Counted from the stretch's first letter, positions 11,164 to 38,528 are shown. The stretch is DNA of 64,000 nt from Candidatus Omnitrophota bacterium (GCA_041651115.1 JBAZJY010000003.1:73829-137828), one strand, 5' to 3'. Program-made: numbers and translations. Notes: generated by a model from the sequence alone, not told the origin.

Positions 11164-11239
11164 TAGGGACGGTTCTCAAGCCAAGGGAAAAGTGTCCCCA
11201 TGCGGGGACATTTTTCTCCTTGGTTGAGAACCGTCCCTA
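11164..11239. mobile_element. MITE/REP-like palindromic element, family A copy 1: TA-flanked, 16-nt terminal inverted repeats TAGGGACGGTTCTCAA
   Basis: 76-nt near-perfect hairpin: tagggacggttctcaa-gccaagggaaaa-gtgtcccc-atgc-ggggacat-ttttctccttgg-ttgagaaccgtcccta. A second copy with identical termini is at 45771. It sits in the ackA 3' end / panD RBS junction. Confidence 0.7.
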
Positions 11240-22214: not shown

Positions 22215-22232
22215 AGTTTTATCCTTCCAACA

Positions 22233-22262
22233 TAATAGACGAAGCAGGACTAATAATCTAAC
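22233..22262 (-). promoter_or_regulatory. Conserved 30-nt motif TAATAGACGAA-N11-AATCTAAC (minus-strand reading GTTAGATT-N11-TTCGTCTATTA), copy 1, between the ECF sigma and anti-sigma genes
   Basis: The motif recurs at 19047-19076 with identical flanking blocks and the same 11-nt spacing. Confidence 0.35.
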
Positions 22263-22858: not shown

Positions 22859-22902
22859 GACTTTATTTTAACACCAAAAACACAAAGCGTAAAACAAATA
22901 AA

Positions 22903-22950
22903 TAGGGACAGAGCCTACTTTTCTGTACAGAAAAGTAGGCTCTGTCCCTA
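22903..22950. repeat. Palindromic element family B copy 1 (TAGGGACAGAG...); likely bidirectional intrinsic terminator
   Basis: tagggacagagcctacttttctg-taca-gaaaagtaggctctgtcccta, flanked by an A-tract upstream and a T-tract downstream. It lies directly after the hppA stop. Confidence 0.65.
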
Positions 22951-22957
22951 TTTATTA

Positions 22958-25063
22958 TTATTTAAACAACGAATTCTTGACGATAAACGAAGCAAAGACT
23001 ATGGAAACCATGGACATCAGCTTGATCAGGATGTTTAAGCTGGGGCCGGAGGTATCCTTGAACGGGTCGCCCACGGTATCGCCGACAACACCGGCTTTAT
23101 GCGCTGCCGAGCCCTTGCCGCCATGATGCCCCTCTTCTATGTATTTCTTGGCATTATCCCAGGCGCCGCCGGAATTTGCCATCATAACCGCTAATACAAA
23201 CCCGCAAACCGTAGCGCCGATCAATAAGCCGCCTGCTGCTTCGATGCCGACTAAAAACCCTACGATGATGGGAGTGGCGATTGCCAGAAGCGAAGGCACG
23301 ATCATTTCCTTCTGCGCTGCGGCAGTAGCAATGCTCACGCAACGCGCGTAATCAGGCTTGCTCTTGCCTTCCATAATGCCTGCAATTTCCTTAAACTGCC
23401 TGCGCACCTCAACCACGATCTTTCCTGCAGCCCTTCCGACTGCGCGCATGGTCATTGAACAAAACAGGAACGGCATCATTCCGCCGATAAACAAACCCAC
23501 TAAAACATTGGGATTCATCAGGCTTAAGGTCATTTCCTTGCCGAATATGGCTACCTGATCACGGTAAGCAGCGATCAAAGCCAGGGCTGTCAAGGCAGCT
23601 GAGCCAATGGCAAAGCCCTTGCCGGTTGCGGCAGTAGTATTGCCTAAAGAATCCAATGCATCTGTTCTCTTCCTTACTTCCGGGGGTAAATGCGACATTT
23701 CCGCGTTACCGCCGGCATTATCAGCTACCGGGCCATAAGCATCGGTTGCCAAGGTTATGCCTAAAGTTGAAAGCATACCTACTGCGGAAATCGCTATGCC
23801 GTATAATCCGGCATTGTAATCCGCTGCTCCGCCTGATAAAAAGAAGCTCAACAATATTGCAACACAGACAATAATCACCGGAACCGCCGTAGACATCATC
23901 CCCACAGCCATACCGGCAATAATTACGGTTGCCGGGCCGGTTAAAGAAGCGTCGGCAATTGAACGCGTAGGCGAAGAACCGCTGGAAGTATAATATTCAG
24001 TGCAAAGGCCGATCAGAACGCCGGCAACTAAACCGGCGATCACTGACCAATAAACTCCCATGTGCTGCGCGCCTAAAGTGTACTTAACGAGAAAGTAAGA
24101 AGCGATCGCCACGATAAATGAGCTGGCAAAAACGCCTTTTCTTAATGCTGCCAGCAGGACTTTTTGGCTTGCCTCTTCCCTGCTTTTTACAAAGAACGTT
24201 CCTATGATCGAAGAAAACACGCCTACTGCTGCCATAACCATCGGGACTGTCACGCCTGCTACGCCTAATCCTGCGGCAACGCCTAATGCCGAAGTAGCCA
24301 CGATCGAACCGACATATGATTCATAAAGGTCGGCGCCCATGCCTGCCACATCGCCGACGTTGTCGCCTACATTATCGGCAATAACTGCCGGGTTACGCGG
24401 GTCATCTTCAGGAATGCCTGCCTCTACCTTACCTACTAAATCAGCCCCCACGTCCGCGGCTTTGGTAAAAATACCGCCGCCAACACGGGCAAAAAGCGCC
24501 ATTGAACTTGCGCCCATGCCAAAACATAACATCGTGGAAGTGATTGCCGCGATCTTATCCGTGCCCAGCGGCGTAGGATTAAAAGAATAATACCAATTAA
24601 GGAAATAATACCAGACGCTTAAATCAAGCAGGCCAAGGCCGACTACGGTCAGGCCCATAACCGCGCCGCTTGAGAATGCCACGCGCAAGCCGGAGTTCAG
24701 GCTCTTCATTGCCGCGGCTGCAGTACGGTTTGAAGACTCGGTAGCAATTGTCATTCCGATAAAACCGGAAAGCCCGGAGAAGAACCCGCCGGTCAGGAAG
24801 GCAAACGGCACAAACATTACTAAATACCCCTTAAATGCCATTGCCATAAGGATAAAAAAGACTACCACAAAGAAAAGCGACACGCCCAGATATTGCCTCT
24901 TTAAATACGCCCTTGCCCCGATCTTTACTGCGAGGGCAATTTCCTGCATCCGGTCGCTTCCCTTATCTTGTCTTAAAAGAAAAGGGACAAGATACAAAAA
25001 CGCAAAACCCAGCGCTACTATTGAGCCGATCGGTGCAAGAAGTAAGAAATCAAAACCTGCCAT
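22958..25063 (-). CDS. hppA: Membrane-bound proton/sodium-translocating pyrophosphatase
   Basis: 701 aa, polytopic. Diagnostic motifs GGxxxNAKK ([12 protein letters not shown]), [12 protein letters not shown] and [19 protein letters not shown]. Confidence 0.95.
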
Positions 25064-25153
25064 TTTGCTACCTCCTAAGCTTAGTTATTATATAGGGGAA
25101 TTCTTGAATTAAACGAGGTGTAATCTAACACACCGGGATATTATTGTCAATAT

Positions 25154-25561
25154 TTATTCTGCCTTTGCTGCGATGTTGAGCTTTCTTATGCCAAGGCCGT
25201 TCAAGGTGTCTAATACCGCGACAATGTCCTTAAAACGCACCAGCTTGTCGGAAAACAGGACTACCTCGATACCCGGGTTACCTTCGCGCAGGGCGTGGAT
25301 CCGCTCTTTAAATTCTTTACGCGTTACCAGGATATCGTCAACATAAATAGTCCCCTCATTTGTTACCGTGATATTTACCTGCTGCCGGGCGTTTTCGTTA
25401 GGCTTGGCGCTGGCGGCGTTAGGGAGATTAACCTTGATACCCGAGTGGACGATCAGCGGAGTAGTGATCATAAATATGATCAACAACGTGAGGGCAATAT
25501 CGGTAAGCGGCGTGATATTGATTTCCGTGATCAGTTTTTGTTTTCTGGCGTTGACGTTCAT
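25154..25561 (-). CDS. exbD: Biopolymer transport protein ExbD/TolR
   Basis: 135 aa. A single N-terminal TM helix with the INITPLTDIALTLLIIFM motif. Confidence 0.8.
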   Translation of the reverse strand: MNVNARKQKLITEINITPLTDIALTLLIIFMITTPLIVHSGIKVNLPNAASAKPNENARQQVNITVTNEGTIYVDDILVTRKEFKERIHALREGNPGIEVVLFSDKLVRFKDIVAVLDTLNGLGIRKLNIAAKAE

Positions 25562-25562
25562 T

Positions 25563-26174
25563 TTATTTAGGCGCGGTCAGGTCCATTGTTTCGGAAGCGC
25601 AAAGCTCCATATCTTTGATAAAACTGTCGATCTTCTTAATAAAATAATTATAGGCGGTAATTGCCGGGACAGCAACGCAAAGCCCGGCCGCGGTGGTAAC
25701 AAGCGCTTCGGATATACCATTAATCACTACGCCTACCCCTCCGGTGCCGCTTGCGGAAAGGTCATGAAAAACCCGCATTATGCCTAATACCGTGCCAAAA
25801 AGCCCGATATATACCGCAACGCTGGCGATCGTCCCGATGATGGCGGTAAACCTTTCCAGGGTGGTCGTTTCTACGACGATCTCGCGGTCCATATTATTGG
25901 ATATTTCCTTTTCGCTGTGATTATAGAAGCTCAAGCCGGCGTAAACCACGCTGGAAAACGGAGTATCGCTTTTCTTGCATATTGAGAGGGCTGTTTCAAC
26001 GCTCCCTTTCTCCAGCTCTTTTCTTACTTTTTTCATAAAATCAAGCCTTTTAACCCGCGAGCGCCTGCGGTAATACAGATACCTCTCAATAATAATCGCC
26101 AGGGAAACGATTGAACAAAACAAGAGTATTATTAAGGTAAAGCCGCCGGTCCGGAATAATTGCCACGTTGACAT
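25563..26174 (-). CDS. exbB: MotA/TolQ/ExbB proton-channel protein
   Basis: 203 aa with three TM helices. Conserved GLFGTVLGIM and EALVTTAAGL motifs. Confidence 0.8.
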   Translation of the reverse strand: MSTWQLFRTGGFTLIILLFCSIVSLAIIIERYLYYRRRSRVKRLDFMKKVRKELEKGSVETALSICKKSDTPFSSVVYAGLSFYNHSEKEISNNMDREIVVETTTLERFTAIIGTIASVAVYIGLFGTVLGIMRVFHDLSASGTGGVGVVINGISEALVTTAAGLCVAVPAITAYNYFIKKIDSFIKDMELCASETMDLTAPK

Positions 26175-26193
26175 ACGATCACCCCCAGATTGT

Positions 26194-26685
26194 TTATTGT
26201 TCTAAAGCCGTATTAATCGCGCTGCAAACCTGCGTTATAGCCGCTGCAACTGCCTTTGTCGGCCGGCTGCAGAAAGTAAAGCTCTTCGGCTGGATGCCGA
26301 TAACTATTATCTCACACTTAAGCAAACGGACAAGATATTCAATCATTATTTTAAGCGGAAGCTTATGCGTGCAAAACGACGCTCCGCCGAAATCCTGCGT
26401 TTCAATCAGCTTTACCCTGCCTGCCGGCTTGCCGAAATCCGCGGAATCCACGATAATCAAGTGGCTTGGCTTAAATTGCCTTATCTGGCCGGTCAGGTTC
26501 TCGGGAGCAGTTGCCCCGATAAAAACCCGGAATTTCCTGCGGCGATTAGCCATTTTCCTGCCGAGCCGCTCTGCCACGATCACCCCGGCTGCGTCATCTC
26601 CCCGGATATCAGAGCCTACGCCAAGGACAGCAACCCTGTCGGCTCCTTTAAGTTTATTTTTCAGGGTTTTCTTTAGGGGCAACAT
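26194..26685 (-). CDS. Hydrogenase maturation endopeptidase (HycI/HyaD family)
   Basis: 163 aa. The VLGVGSDIRGDDAAG motif (GxGNxxxxDDGxG) matches this family. It is the last gene of the hydrogenase operon. Confidence 0.7.
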   Translation of the reverse strand: MLPLKKTLKNKLKGADRVAVLGVGSDIRGDDAAGVIVAERLGRKMANRRRKFRVFIGATAPENLTGQIRQFKPSHLIIVDSADFGKPAGRVKLIETQDFGGASFCTHKLPLKIMIEYLVRLLKCEIIVIGIQPKSFTFCSRPTKAVAAAITQVCSAINTALEQ

Positions 26686-27067
26686 TTAAAATTACTTTTA
26701 GTTTTCCGGAATTCAGCTCTGCCAGCTCAAATTCATCCGTTACTGCCAATGCCTTTTTAAGGCAGGAGTCCACGCACTGGCCGCAAAATATGCATTTACC
26801 AAGGTCTATCTCGGCAACGATCTTTTTATCCTCTGTTTGCCGGATGGTTATTGCCTTTGCCGGGCAGTCTCTCATGCATAATTTACAACCCACGCATTTT
26901 TCCGCAGAGAACTTGATCTTGCCGCGGGAGCCCTTGATCGCGCCGGATTTCACATAGGGATACCTGGTCGTAGCCGGTTTTTTAAACAATGAAAACAAAA
27001 CCGCCTTGATCATTTTTCCCGGCCTTCTCATTTTCATCTTGATTCCTTTTATCTTACTACGAACCAT
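26654..27067 (-). CDS. Hydrogenase 2x[4Fe-4S] ferredoxin subunit (NuoI/HycF/MbhN-like)
   Basis: Two CxxCxxCxxxCP motifs (CVGCKLCMRDCP, CIFCGQCVDSC). The true start is probably the internal Met at about 27013 (MIKAVLFSLFKKPATTRYP). Confidence 0.75.
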   Translation of the reverse strand: MVRSKIKGIKMKMRRPGKMIKAVLFSLFKKPATTRYPYVKSGAIKGSRGKIKFSAEKCVGCKLCMRDCPAKAITIRQTEDKKIVAEIDLGKCIFCGQCVDSCLKKALAVTDEFELAELNSGKLKVILNVAPKENPEK

Positions 27068-27990
27068 TTTACCGTCAGGTCAACGAGCACCTGTAAAAAT
27101 GCCAGCGGCGCAATATATTTCCAGCATAAATTAACCATCTGGTCTATGCGCAGCCGCGCCAACACTGTGCGGAATAAAGAAATTATACTCACGATCAGGA
27201 ATATCTTAACTAAAAAAAGGAGAAAACCGACAGCCGGGCCAAGGTCAAGCCCGAACGGCAGGAAAACCGCTGCCAAGAGGCTTGCGCCGACTATCATTTC
27301 TACGTCAATAGTAAGCCGGAACATCCCCAGCAGCCTCCCGCTATATTCTGTCAGGCTTCCGGCAACGATCTCGGTCTCCGCTTCAGGTATGTCAAACGGC
27401 CCTTTTTCCAGTTTACCCATTAGCGCGACTACGGAGATCGCAAAACCAAGGAGATTAAACGCCCAAAGCCCCGGGTGCCGGCTGTAAAAAACCGTGATCT
27501 CGCTTAATGTCCAGGTATTTGCCAGAAGCGCGGAAGCTAAAACGCTGCTCAATAACGGTATCTCGTAAGCAAATAACTGCGTCAATGAGCGCATAGATCC
27601 GATCGTAGAATAGACCGAACGCGAATACCAGCCTGCCAAAAACAAAGTCATTGTCGGGATGGTCAAAAGATAAAGCACGACGATAACATCGCCCTGAAAA
27701 GAAAACAAGGCTTGCGTTTTCCAGAGCGGTATATAGAGGAACGCCGTAACCGTTGAGGCAAAGGCGAATATCGGCATCAGCCTGAACGGCCGCGGGTCCG
27801 CTTCTTCGGGGATAAGGTCTTCTTTCCCTGCCAGCTTTATAAAATCCGCAAACGGCTGGAACCACGGCGGCCCGACCCTGTTTTGCATCCGCGCGTAAAC
27901 CTTGCGGTCGTAGAATTCAACAATAAACCCGAAGACGATCAAAAACAGCGCCCCGGGGAAAATAATGATCTCAAATAACGCCTTAAACAT
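27049..27990 (-). CDS. Hydrogenase membrane subunit (NuoH/HycD/MbhM-like)
   Basis: 313 aa with about 8 TM helices. The N-terminal E..DRK..AR.Q.R.GP motif (EFYDRKVYARMQNRVGPP) defines the complex-I subunit-1 family. Confidence 0.8.
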   Translation of the reverse strand: MFKALFEIIIFPGALFLIVFGFIVEFYDRKVYARMQNRVGPPWFQPFADFIKLAGKEDLIPEEADPRPFRLMPIFAFASTVTAFLYIPLWKTQALFSFQGDVIVVLYLLTIPTMTLFLAGWYSRSVYSTIGSMRSLTQLFAYEIPLLSSVLASALLANTWTLSEITVFYSRHPGLWAFNLLGFAISVVALMGKLEKGPFDIPEAETEIVAGSLTEYSGRLLGMFRLTIDVEMIVGASLLAAVFLPFGLDLGPAVGFLLFLVKIFLIVSIISLFRTVLARLRIDQMVNLCWKYIAPLAFLQVLVDLTVKWFVVR

Positions 27991-27993
27991 CGG

Positions 27994-29217
27994 TTAACCC
28001 GCTTTACTTTTTAGTTTTTTGTTCAACTTCGTAAAATCGATGCCCTGCCTGCTGTACCATTCTATGCCTTCTACGCGCAGGCTTTCCCAGGTAACGATCT
28101 TTCTGCCTTTTTTCTCATGGTTTTTAAGCGCGATCAGCCGGTCTGTGCAGGAGAAACAGGGATCGATCGCTGCCACAACAATAGGCATATCTGCCAGATA
28201 ACGGTCTTCAAGCATAAAAGCTACGGTTTGGATATTGGCAAGGGTAGGCGCCCTTACTTTTACCCTTTCGGGCTTATCCGTTCCGTTAGCCTTGACATAA
28301 TGCAGGTCCTCTCCGCGCGGCGCCTCATAGCGGCTTACTGCTTCGCCGGCAGGGATCTTGCGCGGCACTTTTACGGCGATCTCGCCGCCGGGAAGATTCT
28401 TTAAAACTTTTCGGATAATACTATAGCTTTCCATCAACTCGCCTAAACGCACGATGGTGCGGCCGTAAATATCATTATGGCTGTCCGTGATCACCTTAAA
28501 ATCGATTTCCGCGTAAGCAGCATACGGATCGTCTTTTCTCACATCCCTTGCCACGCCGGATGCGCGGGCAGTCGGGCCGACCGCACCTAAACGCAAGACA
28601 TCTTCCTTAGACATCACCCCAACCCCGGAAAGCCGCTTTATCAAAGTAGTTTCTCCGGTGGCTACCTCAATATAATACTTGGTCCTTTCTTCCAGGGTAT
28701 CCATTGCCTTAAGCATGTCCTTCACCTGCTCAGCTGAAATATCGCGCCTGACCCCGCCCAGACAATTTATGCCGTAATTCACGCGGTTACCCGTAAGCCC
28801 GGCAAGGATATCCATGACGATCTCGCGGTCGCTCCACGTATACATCAATAAGGTATCAAATCCAACTTCATGGCCTGCCACTCCCAGCCATAAAAGATGG
28901 CTGTGGATCCTTTCCAGCTCGCCTACCAGCGTGCGGATGTATTCCGCGCGCTTAGGGACACTGATGCCGACGATCTCTTCTACTGCCTGCGCAAAACAAG
29001 TGGAATGCGCGTGCGAACAAATGCCGCAGATGCGCTCAATAAGATAAAGGCCCTGAATATACGTCCTCTCTTCACAAGCCTTCTCAATGCCGCGGTGATT
29101 ATAGCCAAGCCGCACGCCTGCTTCCAATATTTTTTCCCCGCTTAAAAGCAGGCTGAAACTGGCCGGTTCCTTTAAAGCCGGGTGCTGCGGCCCAACGGGT
29201 ATTTTTATGTCATGCAT
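27994..29217 (-). CDS. [NiFe]-hydrogenase large subunit, group 4 (membrane-bound, energy-converting)
   Basis: 407 aa. N-terminal RxCGxCxxxH (RICGICSHAHS) and C-terminal DPCxxCxxR (DPCFSCTDR) are both present, so the NiFe-binding cysteines are retained. This distinguishes it from NuoD. Confidence 0.9.
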   Translation of the reverse strand: MHDIKIPVGPQHPALKEPASFSLLLSGEKILEAGVRLGYNHRGIEKACEERTYIQGLYLIERICGICSHAHSTCFAQAVEEIVGISVPKRAEYIRTLVGELERIHSHLLWLGVAGHEVGFDTLLMYTWSDREIVMDILAGLTGNRVNYGINCLGGVRRDISAEQVKDMLKAMDTLEERTKYYIEVATGETTLIKRLSGVGVMSKEDVLRLGAVGPTARASGVARDVRKDDPYAAYAEIDFKVITDSHNDIYGRTIVRLGELMESYSIIRKVLKNLPGGEIAVKVPRKIPAGEAVSRYEAPRGEDLHYVKANGTDKPERVKVRAPTLANIQTVAFMLEDRYLADMPIVVAAIDPCFSCTDRLIALKNHEKKGRKIVTWESLRVEGIEWYSRQGIDFTKLNKKLKSKAG

Positions 29218-29689
29218 TTTTACTGCCCTCCTGCAACATTTCTTTTTTCCAGTCTTTACGCAAGGGGTATTGGCCTTCAGGCCAATTATCCGGCAAAGGA
29301 TAACGCTTGCCTTTCTTAAGCCCTTCTACCTTTGTCCCCAATAGATCAACCAATTCTCTTTCATAAATTTCCGCGCCGGGAAAATAACTTGTTATTGTCT
29401 TTATAACCGGATCATTTTTGGCTACGCCGGTCTTAATGCTCAAGACAATCCCGTTTTCGCTGGACAAATGGTAAATAAATGAAAGTTTTTCGCCCTCGTC
29501 CATGCCGGTAATACCGGAAAGTATGCAAAAACCTAGAGCTTCTATCGCGTAGTCAAATACATTGAAGAATTTATCCGGAGAAACTTCGGCATAGATCCTC
29601 CTTTGCCTCTGGACCCTTATGCCATTTCCCAGAAAATTAAAATTCTTCAGCAATTCCTGCCGTATTCTTTCTTCTTCTGACATGTTCAC
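29210..29689 (-). CDS. Hydrogenase NuoC-like (30 kDa) subunit
   Basis: 159 aa. The central ERExxDxxG motif (ERELVDLLG) is shared by NuoC, the HycE N-terminus and MbhK. Confidence 0.7.
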   Translation of the reverse strand: MNMSEEERIRQELLKNFNFLGNGIRVQRQRRIYAEVSPDKFFNVFDYAIEALGFCILSGITGMDEGEKLSFIYHLSSENGIVLSIKTGVAKNDPVIKTITSYFPGAEIYERELVDLLGTKVEGLKKGKRYPLPDNWPEGQYPLRKDWKKEMLQEGSKNA

Positions 29690-30135
29690 TTTTTTACCGC
29701 TTCTTTTTCTTCCAGGCTTGCCAGCAGCTTTACTATCCCGTCAATTATTGCTTCCGGGCTTGCCGGGCATCCCGGGATATAGGCAGCCACGGGGATCACG
29801 GAGTCTATGCCGTGCTCAACATTATAACAGCCTTCAAAAACGCCTCCGGAAGCAGCGCAAGAGCCTACGGCAACCACAAGCTTGGGTTCAGGCATTTGCT
29901 CATAGATCCTGACCACCCTGTCGGCGGTCTGGCGGGTGATCGGCCCGGAACAGACAAGAATGTCCACGTGCCGGGGCGTAGCTTTTAACTGCACGCCAAA
30001 ACGCTCAAGGTCATAACGCGGAGTGAGCGCGGCAATGATCTCTATGTCGCAGGCATTGCAGGCGCCGGTATTAAAATGAAGTATCCACGGCGACTTCAAC
30101 CTTGACCAGTTTACCATTTTTTTGATCAATCCCAT
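29686..30135 (-). CDS. Hydrogenase small subunit (NuoB/MbhJ-like, [4Fe-4S] N2-type)
   Basis: 149 aa. The N-terminal region, GSCAASGG and GCPASP motifs carry the cysteines of the proximal cluster. Confidence 0.85.
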   Translation of the reverse strand: MGLIKKMVNWSRLKSPWILHFNTGACNACDIEIIAALTPRYDLERFGVQLKATPRHVDILVCSGPITRQTADRVVRIYEQMPEPKLVVAVGSCAASGGVFEGCYNVEHGIDSVIPVAAYIPGCPASPEAIIDGIVKLLASLEEKEAVKK

Positions 30136-30140
30136 TGCTG

Positions 30141-30476
30141 CTATCTCCTAAAAAGAATCACCAGCCCGGTGATCGCGCCGACAATATAAACCACGGCGAT
30201 AAAAAAAGAATCTATCGTTTCTATAGGCACGGTAGCGACGATCAAAGCGACTACGTGCAGGATAGTAAAGAAAAAGGCAAACGGGAAAAACTGCCCGTAG
30301 TTAACCTGTACCCTGTGTTCAGGCAGGTCTTCGCCGCAGGCATACGCCTTTCTTGAGCCGCTTTTTAAGACAGTGCTGCGCCGGAAGGCAAGCCTGGACA
30401 ATGAGCCGGAAAGGGTCAGGGTCAACCCGAGGATGATTATAAAAGCTATGGGAGGAAAAAGCAGCCATTCATACAT
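30141..30476 (-). CDS. Small membrane subunit (NuoA/MbhI-like)
   Basis: 111 aa with 3 TM helices. Its position immediately upstream of the NuoB-like gene matches the mbhI-mbhJ order. Confidence 0.4.
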   Translation of the reverse strand: MYEWLLFPPIAFIIILGLTLTLSGSLSRLAFRRSTVLKSGSRKAYACGEDLPEHRVQVNYGQFFPFAFFFTILHVVALIVATVPIETIDSFFIAVVYIVGAITGLVILFRR

Positions 30477-30484
30477 AACGATAC

Positions 30485-30805
30485 CTATCCCTTAAGGTTC
30501 CTGAGATTATCCACGTCCAGCGATTCATCGTGCCGGTAAACACTTAAGATCACGCCTCCGGCAACGACAATGAGCACAACTTCAATTACGATCATCGTGA
30601 TCACGAATGCCTGCACCAGCGGCTCCTGCTTAGTAATGTGGCCGATGACCACAAAAAGTAAGGTTACGCCTTTATTCAGGATCTCCAGGCCGATCAACAC
30701 CTTGATCATATTACGCGTCACCAGCATGCAGTAAACGCCGGTTGCGCAAAGCATGATTATAAAAATAACGAATGTCCAGAATAATACCAGAACATCACCA
30801 CTCAT
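30485..30805 (-). CDS. NuoK/MnhC-like membrane subunit
   Basis: 106 aa with 3 TM helices. The LIGLEILNKGVTLLFVVIG motif resembles NuoK/MrpC. Confidence 0.65.
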   Translation of the reverse strand: MSGDVLVLFWTFVIFIIMLCATGVYCMLVTRNMIKVLIGLEILNKGVTLLFVVIGHITKQEPLVQAFVITMIVIEVVLIVVAGGVILSVYRHDESLDVDNLRNLKG

Positions 30806-31292
30806 TGTCTTCTCTTTCTTTAAATAACATTACCGCGCCAAAACCTCCGGCAAGTAAGATAATGATCTGGCCGAAGAGGTCTAACTGCCGCAGATTCCAA
30901 AGCACGTGCCGGGGATCGGTCTCTACTGTCCGCTGCACAAAAATTATGGTGATCGGCAGCCCTACAAGAAATAAGGCCATTACCCCGGAACAGATTATCC
31001 ACAGCGGCAGGTAACGATAACGCTTCAAGCGCTCTTTTGTCACAGAGCTAAGCTGTTCTCCGGAAATCGGCTTAGTCAGGCCTATGGTGCTTAAGAATAT
31101 CACGGTGATCAGGCCGGTACATACGGAAAGCTCAAAAACCGCTGCCAATGGAGAATTAAAACGGAACATAAAAATGCTGACTATGGCGCTGACAACTGCC
31201 AGTCCGATAGCGGTCTTCAGCAGGCTCCTGACCATCACGCCCCAGACTGCCGCTACCACCATAATTACCAAAAGTGTTAAAATTAAGATCAT
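30795..31292 (-). CDS. NuoJ/MnhB-like membrane subunit
   Basis: 165 aa with 4-5 TM helices. It is located between the antiporter-like and NuoK-like genes. Confidence 0.4.
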   Translation of the reverse strand: MILILTLLVIMVVAAVWGVMVRSLLKTAIGLAVVSAIVSIFMFRFNSPLAAVFELSVCTGLITVIFLSTIGLTKPISGEQLSSVTKERLKRYRYLPLWIICSGVMALFLVGLPITIIFVQRTVETDPRHVLWNLRQLDLFGQIIILLAGGFGAVMLFKEREDNEW

Positions 31293-32722
31293 GGCAATAA
31301 AATTTGTTTTACCGGTTCAAACACAGACACGAATACCGCGGGGAAAAATAATCCCGCCATTATTGTGACCAATGCCAACGCTATAGAAACCAGCGAAAAA
31401 CCCAAACCTGCCTCTTTTACGCTTTCCAGGCCCGGCGCAAGCTTTCCAAAAAAAACTTTCCTTTGCATAATCAGCAGATAAGCCAAAGTAAGGATGCTTG
31501 CCAGGGCTGCTGCCAGCGCATAAAAATGCTGGCCAGCGCTCCACAGCGCGATGATAATGAGCAGCTTGCTCCAAAATCCGGACAAAGGCGGAATGCCGCT
31601 TGCGGAAAGAAAACCGATGATCGAAGTAACGGAAGTAACCGGCATCCTTGATGAAAGGCCTCCCAGATCATCCATTTCAGTCGTCCCTGCCTGTAAACCG
31701 ACTGCCGCAGAATTTACGAATAAAAGAGATTTGAACATTGAATGATTAAACAGGTGGAATACCGCAGCAATCACCCCAAGGCCGGTGCCGCTTCCTAATG
31801 CCAATATTATATAACCGACCTGGCTGATACTTGAATAAGCCAGCATCCGTTTAAAATCAGTTTGGCCCAAAGCTGCCAGCGCAGCGGTAATAATCGAAAC
31901 TAACCCTACGAATAAGAGCAACGCATTAAGCCCCGGGCTAAACCCGAAAACCCCGGTTACCAGCCTGATCAAAGTGTAAACGCCGCATACTTTTGTTACG
32001 ATCCCGGCCAATAATACCGATACTGCCGGCGGCGCGCTGGAATAAGCGTCCGGCAGCCAGCCGTGGAAAGGCATCAGTCCGCCCTTGATAAAAAGCCCGC
32101 AGATAAAAATCGCGATACTGAAAATAACAACATAATTATGCTTGGAATTCGCCAAGGCGCTCTGCAGCCCGGGAAAAGAAGTATCTCCGGAAGTAAATAA
32201 AAGCAGCGCGATGGAAGTAAGCATCATTATGGTCGCCACCGAAGAAAGAACCGTATATTTGAACGCGCCTTCAAGGCTGGCCCTGCCCCTGCGAAAAGCG
32301 ATCAGGATAAACGAAGATATCGCGGTGATCTCAAGGAATACGTATAATGAAAACATGTCTTTTGTCATCGCAATACCGTTCATGCCGATAAAAGCGATGA
32401 TCAGGACATTAATAAAATTAAACCTTTGCTTCTTATCGGTAAGGGTGTACCTGCCGATGATCAGGCTCACCAGGCAGACAGCCGCGATACAGAAAAGCAT
32501 GATCAGCGCCAGGCGATCCGCTCCAAGGTGGACCGTAAAGAATGAATTGATGCGGTCAAGCCCGGGATTATAAAAAAAGTAATTATGCATCAGCACAGCC
32601 AGGATCTGGAAGACAAACAACGCGGCAGCAGACCATAGCGCTATCCTGGTCATTTGGATGCCGAAGAAAAGATTAAAAAATATGATTTCCAGCAGCGGAA
32701 CCAAGATCAACAAAGAAGGCAT
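31289..32722 (-). CDS. Proton-conducting antiporter-like subunit (NuoM/MrpD family)
   Basis: 477 aa, polytopic. Conserved SSISQVGYI and FxGxxxxxLxxxxLP motifs of the NuoL/M/N-MrpA/D family. Confidence 0.8.
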   Translation of the reverse strand: MPSLLILVPLLEIIFFNLFFGIQMTRIALWSAAALFVFQILAVLMHNYFFYNPGLDRINSFFTVHLGADRLALIMLFCIAAVCLVSLIIGRYTLTDKKQRFNFINVLIIAFIGMNGIAMTKDMFSLYVFLEITAISSFILIAFRRGRASLEGAFKYTVLSSVATIMMLTSIALLLFTSGDTSFPGLQSALANSKHNYVVIFSIAIFICGLFIKGGLMPFHGWLPDAYSSAPPAVSVLLAGIVTKVCGVYTLIRLVTGVFGFSPGLNALLLFVGLVSIITAALAALGQTDFKRMLAYSSISQVGYIILALGSGTGLGVIAAVFHLFNHSMFKSLLFVNSAAVGLQAGTTEMDDLGGLSSRMPVTSVTSIIGFLSASGIPPLSGFWSKLLIIIALWSAGQHFYALAAALASILTLAYLLIMQRKVFFGKLAPGLESVKEAGLGFSLVSIALALVTIMAGLFFPAVFVSVFEPVKQILLP

Positions 32723-32741
32723 TGCTTATTCTTCTCCTAAG

Positions 32742-34574
32742 CTAAACCGATTTCAATAAAAATACCACTACCATCGCGGCGCCGGTAATGGCCCAGATAA
32801 CATAAAGAGAATAATTACCGTTATGCGCTTTTCTTATTCCATAACTGAACGCAAAGGCAAGCTTTACCGCAAATACGTCATACATCCAGTCTATTGTCCG
32901 GTCAAAACACCATGCGGCATGCGCAAATATCCTGACTAATCCCATGCCGATATTATAGGGATCAAAATACCCGCGCTGCGCTTTATCATATATCCAGCCC
33001 AAGAGCGGGGCATAATGAATATGGTCTACCGCCCTTAAGCCGCTTCCGGTTTTCCTTACTCCGTATAAATGATCCAGCAGCGCAGCGATCAAGACGGCGA
33101 TCGTAACCGCAAAGAGAAAAACATTCACGTGCAATCCGCTGAAATCATGGCCCCCGAGCCTCTCCTGCCCGATTACCGGCTGGATAAGATAGCGTAACGG
33201 AATAAAATTCAGCAGGCCGAAAATAACGCAGGTCGCGGCAACCACAAGCATCGGCGCCAACATGCGCAGCGGCGCTTCCTTTACTGCCTTGTTTTTCTCA
33301 TTTAACCTGCCCAGGAACGCGGCATGCCCAAGTTTTAAGAATGAAGCCGCGGTAAGAAAAGACCCGCCAACCGCAGCCAGGTAAAATATCCAGCCTCTTT
33401 CCAGCGCCCCGCCATAAATCAGCTCTTTGGAGAAAAACCCGTTAAACGGCGGCACGCCGGATATTGATAAGGCGGCTATAGTAAAACAAATAAAAGTTAT
33501 CGGCATCTTCAGCCTCAAGCCTCCGAGGCTCTCTAAGTCTGTGCTGCCGGCTTGTTTCTCCACGGAACCCGCAGAGAGGAACAAACAGCTTTTATATAAA
33601 GCGTTATTAATCAAATGGAATAGGCCGCCGACAATGCCTGCCGGGACTAAAGTGCCGATGCCCAAAATCATATAGCCTACCTGGCTGACCGCGTGGTAAG
33701 AAAGCAGGCGTTTAAAATCTTTCTGCACCAGGGCCATCATTACCGCAAACAAGATCGTCACTGACCCAACGATCATCAGCAGGCTGCTTGCCCATGAACC
33801 GGCAGCAAGCTTAAACATATCCAAAGATATCCGGGCAAGAAAATAAATACCTAGTAATTTTTCCAGCGATGCCGGCAGGATCGCCATGAACGGCAATGGC
33901 GCGTTTTCCGCTGCGTCAGGGATCCAGCTATGGAAAGGCATTGATCCGGCTTTAGAAATTGCTCCGATCACCAGGAGAATAAAGGCAACTCCGGCAAGGC
34001 CGCTTAAAGGAAGGCTGATCCTGGAGATCGTCAGCGTTCCCGCGAGATGGCCGGTCATGATAATACCCAGCATCAGGCAAAAGTCTGAAGCCCCGGCAAT
34101 GATCAGGGCCTTTGTTGCCGCCTTAAACGCATTTCTGCCGCCTATGGCGATCAGGCCAAAAAGAGTAAGCAGCAGGCCTTCCCAGAAAAACAACATCAAC
34201 AAAAGATTATCCGCCAGTAAAGCGGCATTAATAAAAGCGAGTGTTATCAGGATGTAGGCATAAAACTGGTTCAGGTAATCCCTGCCGCGCATAAATACGC
34301 TTGAATATAGAATGACCAGGAATCCGAATACTGCCGCGGCAAGAATCATGAACGAACTGAAATTATAGAGCCTTAGAGAAAATTCTCCTGCCTGCCCCAA
34401 TAAAGGTAAAGAATAAACCGCCCGGCTGTTTAAAAATAATACTGCCAAGAGAAGATTTACCAACCCGGCAAACAAAGCAGTTACTTCCCTTAAGCCGGCC
34501 AGCCTGCGCATCAACAGGCACAATACGCCTGCCGATAAAGGCGCTAATATAAATAACAACAGTATCTTTTCCAT
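32742..34574 (-). CDS. Proton-conducting antiporter-like subunit (NuoL/MrpA family), longest of three
   Basis: 610 aa. Antiporter-family motifs (LSYHAVSQVGYMILGIG, GSMPFHSWIPDA) plus a C-terminal extension typical of NuoL/MrpA. Confidence 0.8.
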   Translation of the reverse strand: MEKILLLFILAPLSAGVLCLLMRRLAGLREVTALFAGLVNLLLAVLFLNSRAVYSLPLLGQAGEFSLRLYNFSSFMILAAAVFGFLVILYSSVFMRGRDYLNQFYAYILITLAFINAALLADNLLLMLFFWEGLLLTLFGLIAIGGRNAFKAATKALIIAGASDFCLMLGIIMTGHLAGTLTISRISLPLSGLAGVAFILLVIGAISKAGSMPFHSWIPDAAENAPLPFMAILPASLEKLLGIYFLARISLDMFKLAAGSWASSLLMIVGSVTILFAVMMALVQKDFKRLLSYHAVSQVGYMILGIGTLVPAGIVGGLFHLINNALYKSCLFLSAGSVEKQAGSTDLESLGGLRLKMPITFICFTIAALSISGVPPFNGFFSKELIYGGALERGWIFYLAAVGGSFLTAASFLKLGHAAFLGRLNEKNKAVKEAPLRMLAPMLVVAATCVIFGLLNFIPLRYLIQPVIGQERLGGHDFSGLHVNVFLFAVTIAVLIAALLDHLYGVRKTGSGLRAVDHIHYAPLLGWIYDKAQRGYFDPYNIGMGLVRIFAHAAWCFDRTIDWMYDVFAVKLAFAFSYGIRKAHNGNYSLYVIWAITGAAMVVVFLLKSV

Positions 34575-34582
34575 AGCTTATT

Positions 34583-36022
34583 TTACCCGCCGGTTATTTG
34601 CCGGACGATCACTTCAGCGAAACCAAAAGGATACTTAATGAAAATGCCGGCGGCAAGGGATAACAGCGCCAGAAGCGCTACGCTTGCGGTCATTAATGAA
34701 GAACCCTCTCTCTGGCTTTGCGCTTTAGGCTCGCCGAGAAATACCATATTAAAGGCCCTTAAAAGATATAATACCGTTAAAACTGCTCCGGCTAAAAACA
34801 CAAAAGCGCTGGAATACTGCTTTGCCCCCACCGCTCCGGCAAAAACCATATATTTGCTCCAGAAACCGCCCAACGGCGGCAACCCCATCACGGAAAACGC
34901 GCAAAGTAAAAAAGATGCGGCGGTAACCGGCATCGTATGGATAAGGCCGCCAAGCTCTGTAATATTTTTAGTCTTTGCCTTTTGTTCAACTATGCCTGCG
35001 CAAAGAAACAAACCTGCTTTTGACAGGCCGTGCATCAAGATATATAAAAGCCCGCCGATGATCCCGATATCATTGCCGGTAGAGAGCCCAAAAAAGATAA
35101 AACCGATCTGACTGACCGTAGAATAGGCAATGATGCGTTTTAGGTCGGTTTCAATAAGCGCTGCGCCCGCGCAAACAAGCGCGCTTATCGCGGCAACTGC
35201 CGCTACGTCAGAATACCACAGCGCCGATAAAGTGATCGTGGCGATAAAAAGCCGGGCAAAGGCATAAACACCGATCTTAACTAATAACGCCGCGTGCAGC
35301 AGCGCAGTAACCGGCGAGGGCGCCACGCCTGCATCCGGCAGCCAGGTGTGGAACGGTAAAGTGGCGGATTTGGAAAATATACCGATAAGGATCAGCAATA
35401 CGGCAAAACCGGGTGCGTTACCGGCTTTAAAACTTTCTTTTACCACTGCCAGGTCAAACGACCCGCATTGCTGGTATATGCCGATAAACCCGATGAGCAT
35501 TGCCAGCGCGCCAAAGCCGGTTACCAAAAAGGATTTATCCGCTTTTAAAACATGCGTTTTTTCCCGGAAAAACCCGATCAAGCGCCAGCTGGTAACTGCC
35601 GTAAGCTCCCAGAATATGTACATAAATATCAAGTTAGCCGAAAAGATCAAACCCATCATCGCGCCGAGGAACAGCGCCACCATAGAATAATATTCGTTCT
35701 GGTTTTCATAATGGCTGATATAGCTGAAAGAATACAGGATGATCACCGCGCTGATCAGCCCGGAAACGCAGCCCATGAATACAGCCAGGCTGTCTGCGCT
35801 AAATGCGGTATTGAACCACGGGGCAAGGCTTCCGGGAATGATTACTATTTTTGCGGATGAAGCCAGGGGCAGCATTGTTAACAGTAAGGCAAGCGGGACC
35901 AAAACAAAAAGCAGCGCCGCCAGGTTCCTTAATGCCGCAGAGACCCTTCCTGCTATCGGCAGAATAAAAGCCCCGGCAAGCGGGATGAAAATAATGCTTA
36001 AAAGCATTGCTCCATAATTCAT
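34583..36022 (-). CDS. Proton-conducting antiporter-like subunit (NuoN/MrpD family)
   Basis: 479 aa. The AYSTVSQIGFIFFG and LPFHTWLPDA motifs. Confidence 0.8.
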   Translation of the reverse strand: MNYGAMLLSIIFIPLAGAFILPIAGRVSAALRNLAALLFVLVPLALLLTMLPLASSAKIVIIPGSLAPWFNTAFSADSLAVFMGCVSGLISAVIILYSFSYISHYENQNEYYSMVALFLGAMMGLIFSANLIFMYIFWELTAVTSWRLIGFFREKTHVLKADKSFLVTGFGALAMLIGFIGIYQQCGSFDLAVVKESFKAGNAPGFAVLLILIGIFSKSATLPFHTWLPDAGVAPSPVTALLHAALLVKIGVYAFARLFIATITLSALWYSDVAAVAAISALVCAGAALIETDLKRIIAYSTVSQIGFIFFGLSTGNDIGIIGGLLYILMHGLSKAGLFLCAGIVEQKAKTKNITELGGLIHTMPVTAASFLLCAFSVMGLPPLGGFWSKYMVFAGAVGAKQYSSAFVFLAGAVLTVLYLLRAFNMVFLGEPKAQSQREGSSLMTASVALLALLSLAAGIFIKYPFGFAEVIVRQITGG

Positions 36023-36026
36023 CTAT

Positions 36027-36254
36027 TTATTTAATTACCTTTCCCTCGGTATCAATGACATTGCCGCGGCCCTTACCTGAACGTTTACCCGGACGGCCGT
36101 AACGCAAAGTTACCCTCTTTATTAAGATAAACCCGCTTAGCGCAAAAAGGATGACCAACACGGCCTCAAGCAGCAGCCAGTGCAGCGGCTTTAAAAAAAT
36201 CCAGCCAAAAAATAAGTTAAAGATTATTAAAAACGGCAGGAGGCACCCGGACAT
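36027..36254 (-). CDS. Small 2-TM membrane protein, first gene of the hydrogenase membrane-arm block
   Basis: 75 aa. Two hydrophobic helices and a basic C-terminus. There is a 5-nt gap to the following antiporter gene. Confidence 0.3.
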   Translation of the reverse strand: MSGCLLPFLIIFNLFFGWIFLKPLHWLLLEAVLVILFALSGFILIKRVTLRYGRPGKRSGKGRGNVIDTEGKVIK

Positions 36255-36260
36255 ATTGTT

Positions 36261-37022
36261 TTATTCCCCGGTGCCGTGGACGATCCTGAGGACCTCTTCT
36301 GCTTCTTCCAGCTTTTTCTTAAGCGCCTCGTATTCCTTTCTCGGCACAGAATCCTGCGGCTCAATCTTCGGCGCAGCAGCCGCCTCTTGCGCGGCCTTAT
36401 CTATTTCTTTCCTGTATTGTACGATTTGCGTTTCCAGCATTTTGATCTTATTTAAAGCGTCCTCGTGATCTTTTTTCAACGCCTCTTCGCCTTTATTCTG
36501 TTGATTTTGCATGTCCGTCTTTAAAGAAGCTGTTTCTGTTTCTAACGCCTTTACTTTTTCCAGCGCGGCAACAAGCTTATTGTTTATTTCCTCGTGTTCT
36601 TTGCGCGAAACCTGCTCTTTAGACTGTTGCTGCTGCTTGGCAAGCTGTTCCTCTAATGCCGTAACTTTTTCTTTGGCCGCGGCCAATTCATTGCTTAGGC
36701 CGGGATCCGGGATGGATGCCTTTTCCAGTTCCCTGCTTTTTGCCAGCATTTCTTCCTTTAACTGCGTATTCTCCGCCTTAAGCCGGCTGCTCTCGTCACT
36801 CATCTGGTTGTTCTCTTTTTTTAACTGGTCAACATCCAGCTTGAGCTGCTGCAATTCGGCGTTATTAACCGGGGCCTTCGGTACTGCCGCGACATGCGGA
36901 AAGCGCAGGCCAGTTGGCTCTGCGCGTTCTTTTTCGCCAGCTCCCTCCTGCCGGTTCGGCAAAAACGCGTATACCGCAAGGGCTATGCCTACGAGAAAAA
37001 TAGCTGAAAGAAGAATAATCAT
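36261..37022 (-). CDS. Membrane-anchored coiled-coil protein, paralogous to the N-terminus of the EF-G fusion ORF
   Basis: 253 aa. The N-terminal anchor MIILLSAIFLVGIALAVYAFLP (compare [22 protein letters not shown] at 49845) is followed by about 200 aa of heptad-rich, E/K/Q-rich sequence. Confidence 0.5.
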   Translation of the reverse strand: MIILLSAIFLVGIALAVYAFLPNRQEGAGEKERAEPTGLRFPHVAAVPKAPVNNAELQQLKLDVDQLKKENNQMSDESSRLKAENTQLKEEMLAKSRELEKASIPDPGLSNELAAAKEKVTALEEQLAKQQQQSKEQVSRKEHEEINNKLVAALEKVKALETETASLKTDMQNQQNKGEEALKKDHEDALNKIKMLETQIVQYRKEIDKAAQEAAAAPKIEPQDSVPRKEYEALKKKLEEAEEVLRIVHGTGE

Positions 37023-37423
37023 GCCCGATCCACCTCCTGCGGCACCAAGGCCAGCTTTTTCTTAAGCTCTTCGGGAATAGCTTTGGGTTTTATCGCGGTA
37101 TCTACGCAAACCATTACCGCCTTTGCAGTATTAACAAGCTGGTTGTTTTGGTTTCTTGTTTCGTGGCTAAATTCTATCTTCGCGGTGGTCACGGCAGTTA
37201 TAGCCGTAGATATATCCAAAATGTCTCCGTAAAAAGCCGGCAGCTTATAATCTATTTCCTGGCGCGCCACGACGAATAAAGTACCGGAAGCCGCGAGCTC
37301 ACGGATAAAGATACCCCGTTGCTCGAAGAACTCCGTGCGTGCCTCTTCCATATATTTCAGGTAATTGGCGTAGTATACTACGCCGCCGGCGTCAGTGTCA
37401 TGATAATAGATTCTCTTTTTCAT
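37019..37423 (-). CDS. Acyl-CoA thioester hydrolase, YbgC/4HBT family
   Basis: The YYHDTDAGGVVYYANYLKYMEEARTEFF motif is the hot-dog fold 4HBT signature. The start is placed at the internal Met (MKKRIYYHDTD). Confidence 0.75.
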   Translation of the reverse strand: MKKRIYYHDTDAGGVVYYANYLKYMEEARTEFFEQRGIFIRELAASGTLFVVARQEIDYKLPAFYGDILDISTAITAVTTAKIEFSHETRNQNNQLVNTAKAVMVCVDTAIKPKAIPEELKKKLALVPQEVDRA

Positions 37424-37841
37424 TCTCCAGAACTTTCTCGGAACGCTGCGCTTTGCGTTTTTCGGCCCTGAAAACATTCAAGGCAACGTCAAAATCATAG
37501 ACATCTTCAAAATCGGACTTTTTGTCTTCTTCGGTGCTGCGCATCAACCCGGCATCTACCATATTAAAGACGATCTCTCCGAAGTCAGCCGTAACCCTGA
37601 CTCCCCAATGCCCGAATACCGTCTTTGCCATCGGGCCGTATTGACGGATGGCGAATTTCCTGATGCCGTCCAAAAGCTGCCTGCCGCTGACATGGCCTGA
37701 CTGCTTTAACTTTTTTTGCGTAAACCACAATGCCTGCATAACGAATTCATACGCATCGGGCTTATAGCGGCTGTCCTTGTTTGCAATCTCTTCTATTTTA
37801 CGAAAAAAATTAGCGTCCATTATGTTAATCGGTGATATCAA
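37398..37841 (-). CDS. Conserved hypothetical protein
   Basis: 147 aa, soluble. It contains KPDAYEFVMQAL ... FGHWGV ... VYDFD motifs. The family could not be assigned from sequence alone. Confidence 0.35.
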   Translation of the reverse strand: MISPINIMDANFFRKIEEIANKDSRYKPDAYEFVMQALWFTQKKLKQSGHVSGRQLLDGIRKFAIRQYGPMAKTVFGHWGVRVTADFGEIVFNMVDAGLMRSTEEDKKSDFEDVYDFDVALNVFRAEKRKAQRSEKVLENEKENLLS

Positions 37842-38055
37842 TGACCTTATCCCTGCTCTTTTCTCCTCTTACTATTATAATCCTACTTTTCGGGATGTCA
37901 AAATATTCGCTTAATAATTTTATTGCCGCTGTATTGGCCTTGCCTTCGTGCGCCGCGGCTTTGACGCGGATAAGAAAACTTACCTCTGTGAGCTTTTCAA
38001 TCTCTTCCTGCCGCGATCCCGGCTTGACTTTTACGGAAATCCTCGTTGCAGCCAT
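37825..38055 (-). CDS. DUF167 (YggU-like) protein
   Basis: ISVKVKPGS ... HEGKAN ... IVRGEKSRDKVI matches the DUF167 pattern. The start is taken at MAATRIS. Confidence 0.6.
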   Translation of the reverse strand: MAATRISVKVKPGSRQEEIEKLTEVSFLIRVKAAAHEGKANTAAIKLLSEYFDIPKSRIIIVRGEKSRDKVIDITD

Positions 38056-38056
38056 C

Positions 38057-38437
38057 TTATACCAGCACGGTTTCAACCAAAGGATTGGATTTTAAAGTAT
38101 TATGGACAGGACAGTTCTTTGTAAATTCCAAAAGCGCTTTTTGCCTGCGTTCATCAAGCTGTAGGCCTTTGAGATCCACAACCACTTTTATGGTTTTAAA
38201 GCGCAGCGGCGGCTCAGCGCTGAATTCCGATTCCACGCTGACGCTGAATTTACCTAAAGCCAATCCCGCTCCATCTGTATATTTACGTATATAAACGCCT
38301 ATGCAGCTGCCAAGCGCGGCAAGTAAGGCATCAGGCGGAGTAACTCCCTTATTTTTCATGTCCATGACAAACGAACCGCTTCCGGCTTTTACGCTAAATG
38401 CCCCATCAGGGCTGCTTTCGATATCAACGCGGTACAT
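38057..38437 (-). CDS. OsmC/Ohr-family peroxiredoxin-like protein
   Basis: 126 aa. Contains the two conserved Cys contexts (LGSCIGVY and NCPVHNTL). Confidence 0.8.
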   Translation of the reverse strand: MYRVDIESSPDGAFSVKAGSGSFVMDMKNKGVTPPDALLAALGSCIGVYIRKYTDGAGLALGKFSVSVESEFSAEPPLRFKTIKVVVDLKGLQLDERRQKALLEFTKNCPVHNTLKSNPLVETVLV

Positions 38438-38528
38438 AAAAACTCCTTAATATGTAAAGTAACATCTAATTTTAACACAACAAAATAGCACTGCAACTCT
38501 TATTTGACGATTTTAAATATGCGAGAAA

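Follow-up and report, generated by a model that had tools for sequence, protein, structure and literature searches.

What does the string of minus-strand genes at 26194-36254 encode in a 64,000-nucleotide stretch of DNA from a Candidatus Omnitrophota bacterium (GCA_041651115.1 JBAZJY010000003.1:73829-137828; the whole stretch is hereafter the window): a hydrogenase or a form of complex I, and what would such a complex do for the cell? An earlier note on this DNA had proposed a twelve- to thirteen-gene group 4 [NiFe] hydrogenase. The thirteen consecutive open reading frames (ORFs) that it listed all exist, with ends that overlap or almost touch. We find that 26194-36022 is an intact 12-gene operon, predicted to specify a membrane-bound, energy-converting group 4 [NiFe] hydrogenase. 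Subunits were identified by Pfam, NCBIfam and PDB sequence searches, and the NuoA-like one by family-wide Pfam comparison and hhalign. Hydrophobic segments were counted from hydropathy, and residue conservation over 64-81 orthologous loci, the number varying by subunit. The ORFs are listed below from the upstream end of the operon (aa, amino acids; TM, transmembrane segments).

36027-36254, minus: 75-aa ORF with two hydrophobic segments; without Pfam or NCBIfam match and not in the source's gene calls
34583-36022, minus: antiporter-like subunit 1, 479 aa, NuoL/MrpA/HyfD class; PF00361 (E 1.2e-69) and PF00662
32742-34574, minus: antiporter-like subunit 2, 610 aa, NuoL-like; PF00361 and end-to-end NuoL alignment
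31289-32722, minus: antiporter-like subunit 3, 477 aa, MrpD/MbhH/MbsH/NuoN class; PF00361 (E 6.2e-67)
30795-31292, minus: NuoJ-like protein, 165 aa, five hydrophobic segments; weak PF13244 (MbhD) and PF00499 (NuoJ) matches
30485-30805, minus: NuoK/MrpC/MbhG-like protein, 106 aa, 3 TM; PF00420 (E 7.4e-20)
30141-30476, minus: divergent NuoA/ND3-like protein, 111 aa, 3 TM; PF00507 via orthologues, and hhalign
29686-30135, minus: NuoB-like hydrogenase small subunit, 149 aa; PF01058 (E 3.5e-32)
29210-29689, minus: NuoC-like protein, 159 aa; PF00329 (E 1e-22)
27994-29217, minus: [NiFe] large subunit, 407 aa; PF00346 and PF00374
27049-27990, minus: NuoH/MbhM-like membrane anchor, 313 aa, 8 TM by hydropathy; PF00146 (E 9.9e-78)
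26654-27067, minus: NuoI/MbhN-like ferredoxin-type subunit for two [4Fe-4S] clusters; Fer4 family matches
26194-26685, minus: HycI-type maturation endopeptidase, 163 aa; PF01750 (E 2.5e-14)

The large subunit and the peripheral arm

Whether the enzyme is a hydrogenase turns on the large subunit. Both NiFe motifs reported by the earlier note are present on re-inspection, RICGICSHAH at residues 62-71 and DPCFSCTDR at residues 352-360, and R62, C64, C67, H71, D352, C354, C357 and R360 are unchanged in 81 of 81 orthologues. E. coli NuoCD carries E, G, V and D in the four columns of the NiFe cysteines. The best PDB match is MbhL (6cfw_L, E 4e-98), followed by HycE (E 2.4e-80), with every NuoD chain lower. 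By BLASTP the protein is 45% identical to MbhL, 37-38% to the E. coli enzymes (HycE 38%, HyfG 37%) and 28% to E. coli NuoCD. Past Arg360 it continues for 47 residues, a tail that measures 40-51 residues in nearly all orthologues and 36 in one. The deposited mature MbhL chain (6cfw_L) stops exactly at the aligned Arg of its ...CTDR motif, which fits cleavage after Arg360 by the co-encoded protease; by homology, the HycI-type enzyme would trim the large subunit at this point. Its gene is the end of the operon in most of the related loci that extend that far. The motifs, the protease, the C-terminal extension and the ranking of MbhL and HycE ahead of NuoD thus bear out the assignment to a genuine group 4 hydrogenase rather than a NuoD, as judged from its sequence.

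The peripheral arm, comprising the NuoI-like, NuoB-like, NuoC-like and NiFe large subunits, holds all its cofactor ligands. In the small subunit, C26, C29, C93 and C123, the ligands for one [4Fe-4S] cluster, are invariant in 75 orthologues; the protein scores above the cutoff of the NCBIfam NuoB subfamily model. The NuoI-like protein has eight cysteines in two CxxCxxCxxxC motifs, invariant in 74 of 74 orthologues. Its true start is probably Met19, giving a protein of 119 aa, the length in the source's gene call. NuoC is encoded by its own gene, unfused to the large subunit.

In all related loci of sufficient length, drawn from five phyla, the 12 genes stand in identical order, which argues for one selected functional unit. 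The thirteenth gene of the earlier count fares differently. Relatives of the 75-aa ORF were found by tblastn at just two of the ~60 loci that reach far enough upstream (L011, 43% identity; L016, 49%), both at the same position, and none of the other loci has a conserved small ORF upstream of the first antiporter gene. Because the 75-aa ORF occurs in few loci and is uncalled by the source, we rejected it as a conserved subunit and take the conserved unit to be 12 genes, not 13. It is possibly a lineage-specific small membrane protein.

The membrane arm

All eleven subunits of the "minimal" complex I have homologues in the operon: A, B, C, D, H, I, J and K, plus three of the L/M/N type. The 111-aa protein has no Pfam or NCBIfam match at default thresholds, and its PDB sequence matches (SecY, exportin) were dismissed as chance. 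PF00507 is matched weakly by 33 of its 33 orthologues (profile positions 17-89 of 99, best E 1.3e-5), and the family profile aligns with E. coli NuoA by hhalign at E 1.2e-4, so that its description as NuoA-like holds. The protein has a conserved Y-A-C-G-E loop, in which Y45 and G48 are invariant, as is H74 further on, and C47 and E49 are nearly so. At the TM2 acidic pair of NuoA (D79 and E81 in E. coli) it has the invariant His74 (72/72), then Val two residues on. Read from the alignment, the family departs systematically from complex I at the start of the putative ion path.

The 165-aa protein matches MbsD (6u8y_D, E 3.7e-5) and MbhD by its N-terminal half, and by hhalign its residues 24-150 align with 29-152 of E. 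coli NuoJ (E 3.5e-4). Because of the NuoJ alignment and the five hydrophobic segments, we regard it as an unsplit NuoJ equivalent, one chain that corresponds to both MbhD and MbhE. Its E54, aligned with MbsD E58, is invariant in 71 of 71 orthologues, and E41 and E75 of the NuoK-like protein are invariant in 72 of 72.

The operon does encode three antiporter-like subunits, all PF00361 proteins, but two of them belong to other classes than those first assigned. The 479-aa subunit, previously called NuoN-like, is of the NuoL/MrpA/HyfD class: it groups with these proteins at 98% bootstrap in a neighbour-joining tree that gives strong support to the NuoL/MrpA grouping only, and its best PDB matches are MrpA (6z16_A and 7qru_A), then NdhF and NuoL. 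The NuoL-type N-domain (PF00662) is present and the C-terminal lateral helix is absent. E139, K218, H331, K335 and K390 do not vary among 67 orthologues, and K249 is kept in 58 of the 67. The 477-aa subunit, previously called NuoM-like, belongs by its PDB matches to the MrpD/MbhH/MbsH class (MbhH 6cfw_H, 4.3e-55; MbsH 6u8y_H; MrpD 7qru_D); E131, K213, K244, H323, H327, K331 and K386 are fully or almost fully conserved across 67 orthologues.

The 610-aa subunit keeps its designation as NuoL-like. Residues 8-606 align with 15-609 of E. coli NuoL, end to end, and the match to the NCBIfam NuoL model covers its positions 2-607 of 615. In an AlphaFold2 model (pLDDT 82, pTM 0.79), TM15 spans residues 485-509, a lateral helix runs in three segments over 515-583, and a final TM16 occupies 588-609. 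The top Foldseek matches of this model are full-length NuoL/ND5/NdhF chains, with TM-scores of 0.74-0.77; MbhH matches the core alone. The protein retains the NuoL-specific D164 and E384 (D178 and D400 in E. coli), along with E132, K208, K239, H320, K328 and K383. Judged from the model, it is a NuoL-like subunit whose lateral helix, ~69 residues long, is followed by a terminal anchor helix. All three antiporter-like subunits keep, invariant or nearly so, a Glu in TM5, a Lys in each of TM7, TM8 and TM12, and the His/Lys of TM11, and the membrane arm is by its predicted content a full complex I set with conserved carboxylates and this Glu/Lys/His/Lys series throughout.

In some Margulisiibacteriota the counterparts of the 479- and 610-aa subunits are fused into a single protein of ~1000 aa (P0337, P0345, P0371 and P0408), and in a Methanoregula relative the equivalent operon position is taken by a 1094-aa antiporter-like protein (L087:3776-7060). 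These long proteins suggest that the two subunits probably adjoin in the complex.

In MBH the lateral helix is on MbhI and in MBS on MbsH', and it is longest in complex I, where it crosses three subunits (PMC8165549). With a separate NuoA-like protein, an unsplit NuoJ and a lateral helix of NuoL length, and with no MrpE, MrpF or MrpG families detected by Pfam in the operon or the window, the arm looks complex-I-like rather than Mbh-like. The resemblance to P. furiosus Mbh (subgroup 4d, 6CFW) lies elsewhere. The back half of the operon, B-C-large-H-I, follows the order MbhJ-K-L-M-N; the MbhD-like and MbhG-like subunits keep carboxylates; the 477-aa subunit is nearest MbhH; and ferredoxin would presumably enter, as in Mbh, through the NuoI/MbhN-like subunit. 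In contrast, Mbh has one antiporter-like subunit instead of three, has MbhA-C (MrpEFG), has its NuoJ equivalent divided between MbhD and MbhE, and bears its lateral helix on MbhI.

The E. coli hydrogenase 4, or formate hydrogenlyase 2 (Hyf, group 4a), also has three antiporter-like subunits (HyfB, HyfD and HyfF), NuoH-like and NuoK-like subunits and a HycI-type protease, and likewise places a low-energy redox reaction on a long membrane arm. However, Hyf is coupled to formate (FdhH, HyfA, and a large subunit fused to NuoC, 37% identical to the one here), has another gene order, and is without separate NuoA or NuoJ homologues. The 11-subunit core of complex I (NuoA-D and NuoH-N) is similar in content, with one-to-one homologues, matching TM counts (A 3, K 3, J 5, H 8), a NuoL-like subunit that corresponds to NuoL over its full length in alignment and fold, and the channel residues kept. 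Besides the replaced acidic pair of NuoA, three differences set the two apart: the NuoD homologue keeps a NiFe site instead of a quinone pocket, the gene order is L-type, L-type, D/N-type, J, K, A, B, C, D, H, I, and two of the three antiporter-like subunits are of the NuoL/MrpA class, where complex I has one each of L, M and N. The phrase "evolutionary intermediate toward complex I", used in the earlier note, may be kept as a description of this architecture, not as a phylogenetic statement.

Distribution and classification

How widespread is such an operon? A scan of one genome per species found relatives in at least 557 species representatives with a 30-sequence alignment as the query; the large-subunit protein alone gave no matches, its peptide patterns being too specific. 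Among the best 80 of these relatives, the large subunit is 69-85% identical to ours, and the hosts are Omnitrophota, Phycisphaerae/Sedimentisphaerales and other Planctomycetota, Saganbacteria/Margulisiibacteriota, Krumholzibacteriaceae and Verrucomicrobia. The large subunit itself, identical in sequence, has been deposited from a metagenome-assembled genome under the name [quoted passage not shown].

Further out, uncharacterised clusters from Methanoregula, Anaerolineales and Bathyarchaeota share 53-58% identity with the large subunit, and one from Asgard archaea shares 49%. In a neighbour-joining tree it joins these clusters, apart from the MbhL and HycE/HyfG clades. Operons similar to the present one occur in the Methanoregula relative and in the nearest cluster, P0121. 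On the Methanoregula contig (L087:1-2301), a second, smaller Ech-like module with NuoB, NuoC, a 359-aa large subunit and a ferredoxin lies directly upstream of the operon's relative.

The designation Mbh/Hyf-type is thus apt as far as the large subunit has MbhL and HycE as its top matches among solved structures, and inapt as a subgroup assignment. Subgroup 4d (Mbh) was rejected, the large subunit falling outside the MbhL clade in the unbootstrapped tree and MrpEFG-type genes being absent from the operon and window. Group 4a (Hyc/Hyf) was rejected on its separate clade, the 37-38% identity, the unfused NuoC and the lack of Fdh and HycB genes in the window or among the recurrent neighbours of related loci.

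The nearest published label is 4g. A "Group 4g [NiFe] hydrogenase, Mrp-linked" was reported in two Omnitrophota genera (Ca. Saelkia and Ca. Gorgyraea) and in Cloacimonadota by Williams et al. 2021, where the Omnitrophota enzymes were read as H2-evolving Mbh-type enzymes (PMC8542988), and HydDB reports a 4g enzyme from Bathyarchaeota (PMC5037454). Group 4g, annotated as "ferredoxin-coupled, putative" and represented by Ace Lake metagenome-assembled genomes of Omnitrophota and Cloacimonadota, appears like the present enzyme in kind: same phylum, MrpA/D-like subunits, and no dedicated dehydrogenase partner. One 4g clade, the T. kivui Ech2 type, has another, smaller gene set. The group is polyphyletic in a 2026 survey (PMC13582414). 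Similar unplaced group 4 enzymes with antiporter-like subunits have been described in Saganbacteria, the nearest sequences of one being from Zixibacteria and Omnitrophica (PMC6349859). A literature search under "group 4g" found no report of the same enzyme in Phycisphaerae. By analogy with the Omnitrophota enzymes of like kind, and with Bathyarchaeota among the nearest clusters, 4g is the label we would expect for this enzyme.

Gene neighbourhood and the proposed function

The operon lies among the following genes.

25563-26174, minus: exbB (PF01618)
25154-25561, minus: exbD (PF02472)
22958-25063, minus: membrane pyrophosphatase (PF03030), with the GNTTAA motif of the K+-dependent class
12291-13220, minus: pta, PTA_PTB catalytic protein
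11176-12324: ack
6773-8566: gene for GTP-dependent phosphoenolpyruvate carboxykinase (GTP-PEPCK)

ExbB, ExbD and a pyrophosphatase are encoded directly downstream, as first described, with exbB starting 19 nt past the protease gene. The name H+-pyrophosphatase is not established: membrane pyrophosphatases of the K+-dependent class include Na+ pumps, so that, given its GNTTAA motif, this one may pump Na+. Just past its gene, at 22904-22949, is a perfect palindrome with a 20-bp stem that has a T-rich tail on either strand; no other site within 22000-38600 resembles a strong terminator. The exbB, exbD and pyrophosphatase genes are probably co-transcribed with the hydrogenase operon, without being part of the enzyme. 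A perfect sigma-70 consensus (TTGACA, 16 nt, TATAAT) stands at 37901-37874, upstream of the run of genes that continues into the operon. On the far side of the terminator, also on the minus strand, are an ECF-type (extracytoplasmic function) sigma factor (22250-22858), a putative zf-HC2 anti-sigma factor (21513-22214) and then a 737-aa CHAT/Peptidase_C25/TPR protein (19290-21503).

The ack-pta and GTP-PEPCK genes named in the earlier note were found in the window, as were genes for glycogen phosphorylase and phosphoglucose isomerase (PGI). Directly upstream of the PTA_PTB protein, which is followed by acetate kinase, a CbiA/DRTGG-domain protein is encoded at 13223-14311 (minus strand); the phosphotransacetylase appears to be split. 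Adjoining the glycogen phosphorylase gene, 46807-49845 (minus strand) encodes a 1012-aa GTPase of the elongation factor G (EF-G) family with the full EF-G domain set and ~300 residues more than an ordinary EF-G.

To survey neighbours, all ORFs within 6 kb of the operon were clustered for 80 loci (L002-L081). A pyrophosphatase recurs at 26 loci, ExbB/ExbD at 16-17 (almost all of them Omnitrophota), and an entire F1Fo ATP synthase operon, immediately downstream, at ~13. No dedicated electron-input module (dehydrogenase, NuoEF) recurs among the neighbours of the 80 loci, and the window has no gene for NuoE, NuoF or NuoG, whose absence the earlier note had remarked on, nor for formate dehydrogenase or CO dehydrogenase (CooS). 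It was on the lack of such a module that we settled on a soluble carrier such as ferredoxin as the likely donor, as in Mbh/Ech.

These observations, together with a window whose pta, ack, PEPCK, glycogen phosphorylase and PGI genes speak of fermentation, lead us to favour ferredoxin-driven H2 evolution coupled to proton export by the complex-I-style arm, which we consider probable. Reduced ferredoxin from fermentation would dock on the NuoI-like subunit, and electrons would run along three clusters to the NiFe site, where protons would be reduced to H2. The redox step would drive a charge relay from the NuoH/A/J/K region into the antiporter-like subunits, with export of protons or, less likely, Na+, and the resulting gradient would feed ATP synthase and other gradient users. 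In such a complex the NuoH-A/J/K region would be followed by the 477-, 479- and 610-aa subunits in that order, the lateral helix of the distal one clamping the other two.

Several points weigh against this reading. The subunit order, though likely, follows from the gene fusion, the lateral-helix length and analogy with complex I, and the direction, the electron carrier, the coupling ion and the stoichiometry are inferences too. Estimated from standard potentials, electron transfer from ferredoxin to protons pays for ~1-2 H+ per H2 at most, at low H2 pressure; four putative ion paths (three antiporter-like subunits plus NuoH/A/J/K) look too many for that energy. Maturation capacity is a further point: tblastn with E. 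coli HypA-E found no hyp genes in the window, and among the 80 family loci hyp genes lie nearby in just one (L073), and also at one locus of the sister cluster (L088). The large-subunit tree is a neighbour-joining tree without bootstrap and with a star-like backbone, HydDB describes group 4g as loosely clustered and of undetermined role (PMC5037454), and the family, known at survey level, forms a clade without a biochemically characterised member.

Since four seemingly intact paths look like more than the estimated energy can pay for, reverse operation and partial Na+/H+ exchange both need consideration. In reverse, the same complex would oxidise H2 and spend a proton- or sodium-motive force on driving electrons uphill to ferredoxin, the way Eha, Ehb and Ech work in methanogens. 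With several ion paths, many ions would then pass per electron, which suits the consumption of a gradient better than a pump driven by ~50-100 mV, and the pyrophosphatase and ATP synthase so often beside the operon could supply that gradient. Ca. Gorgyraea, reported to have a group 4g enzyme, possesses a Wood-Ljungdahl pathway, which needs reduced ferredoxin (PMC8542988), and the nearest named archaeal relative of our operon comes from Methanoregula, a genus of hydrogenotrophic methanogens. The window, however, has the fermentative genes listed above and no CO2-fixation genes, and E. coli Hyf, with its three antiporter-like subunits, is regarded as H2-evolving. As group 4 enzymes are reversible, direction is not something that sequence can settle; on balance we think reverse operation unlikely as the main mode. 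About as tentatively, one can suppose that, among living hydrogenases, this widespread bacterial clade comes nearest to the 11-subunit complex I, with true complex I topology, including a NuoL whose full-length lateral helix reaches across three antiporter-like subunits, and a working NiFe site, and that, its four paths being not all payable, it acts mainly as a gradient-driven H2:ferredoxin oxidoreductase or uses a gearing unseen in Mbh. If so, it would offer a tractable model for how the complex I pumping arm was assembled before quinone chemistry.

A Na+-translocating Mrp-Mbh complex of the 4d-like kind, in which proton movement is exchanged for Na+ export through an Mrp module, would account for P. 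furiosus MbhL as the best solved relative of the large subunit, for the homology to MrpA, MrpD, MrpC and the MrpB-like DUF4040, for a neighbouring pyrophosphatase of a class with Na+ pumps, and for the term "Mrp-linked" given to Omnitrophota enzymes (PMC8542988). Yet MrpE/F/G (MbhA/B/C), which belong to the Na+ module proposed for Mbh, MBS and Mrp (PMC8165549), have no homologues in the operon or window, the lateral helix on a NuoL-like subunit and the separate NuoA-like protein follow the complex I arrangement and not that of MbhI, and the large subunit is outside the MbhL clade; we judge this complex improbable. Lower still stands a formate- or CO-coupled hydrogenlyase (4a/4b/4c type) with its dehydrogenase encoded elsewhere in the genome. 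Three antiporter-like subunits are indeed a Hyf feature, and HyfD groups with the 479-aa subunit, but the genes for such modules usually lie together with those for the hydrogenase (PMC13582414), and FdhH, HycB, CooS and CooF were found neither in the window nor among recurrent neighbours of the 80 loci; nor is the large subunit, 37-38% identical to HycE/HyfG, fused to NuoC as those are. That would make a hydrogenlyase a very remote prospect. Least credible of all is a hydrogenase-related complex that reduces another acceptor, such as Ehr, Mbx/MBS or an 11-subunit complex I, even though the subunit set equals the complex I core and the top NCBIfam model for the large subunit is NuoD, below its cutoff. 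Respiratory complex I proper was rejected on the four NiFe cysteines, present and invariant with their flanking Arg, His and Asp in 81/81, and on 28% identity to NuoCD against 45% to MbhL; the Ehr and Mbx/MBS types, which have lost the cysteines and have no protease, were rejected on the same residues and on the conservation of the HycI gene and the cleavable C-terminal extension.

The enzyme is less unusual than the earlier note implied: its operon occurs in hundreds of species, and its type has already been noted in Omnitrophota. By itself the window adds no new biology, because this kind of enzyme is already published for Omnitrophota and neighbouring phyla. What ferredoxin-driven H2 evolution would mean for this genome is a likely outlet for fermentative reductant as H2 that builds an ion gradient at the same time, encoded next to further gradient machinery: ExbB/ExbD with a membrane pyrophosphatase in this genome, ATP synthase in related ones. 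For the family, the operon represents a large, highly conserved and never-purified clade in which a predicted hydrogenase active site is joined to a complete 11-subunit complex I scaffold. Its structure or activity could bear on how group 4 hydrogenases and complex I are related, and on how many ions a low-energy redox reaction may move.

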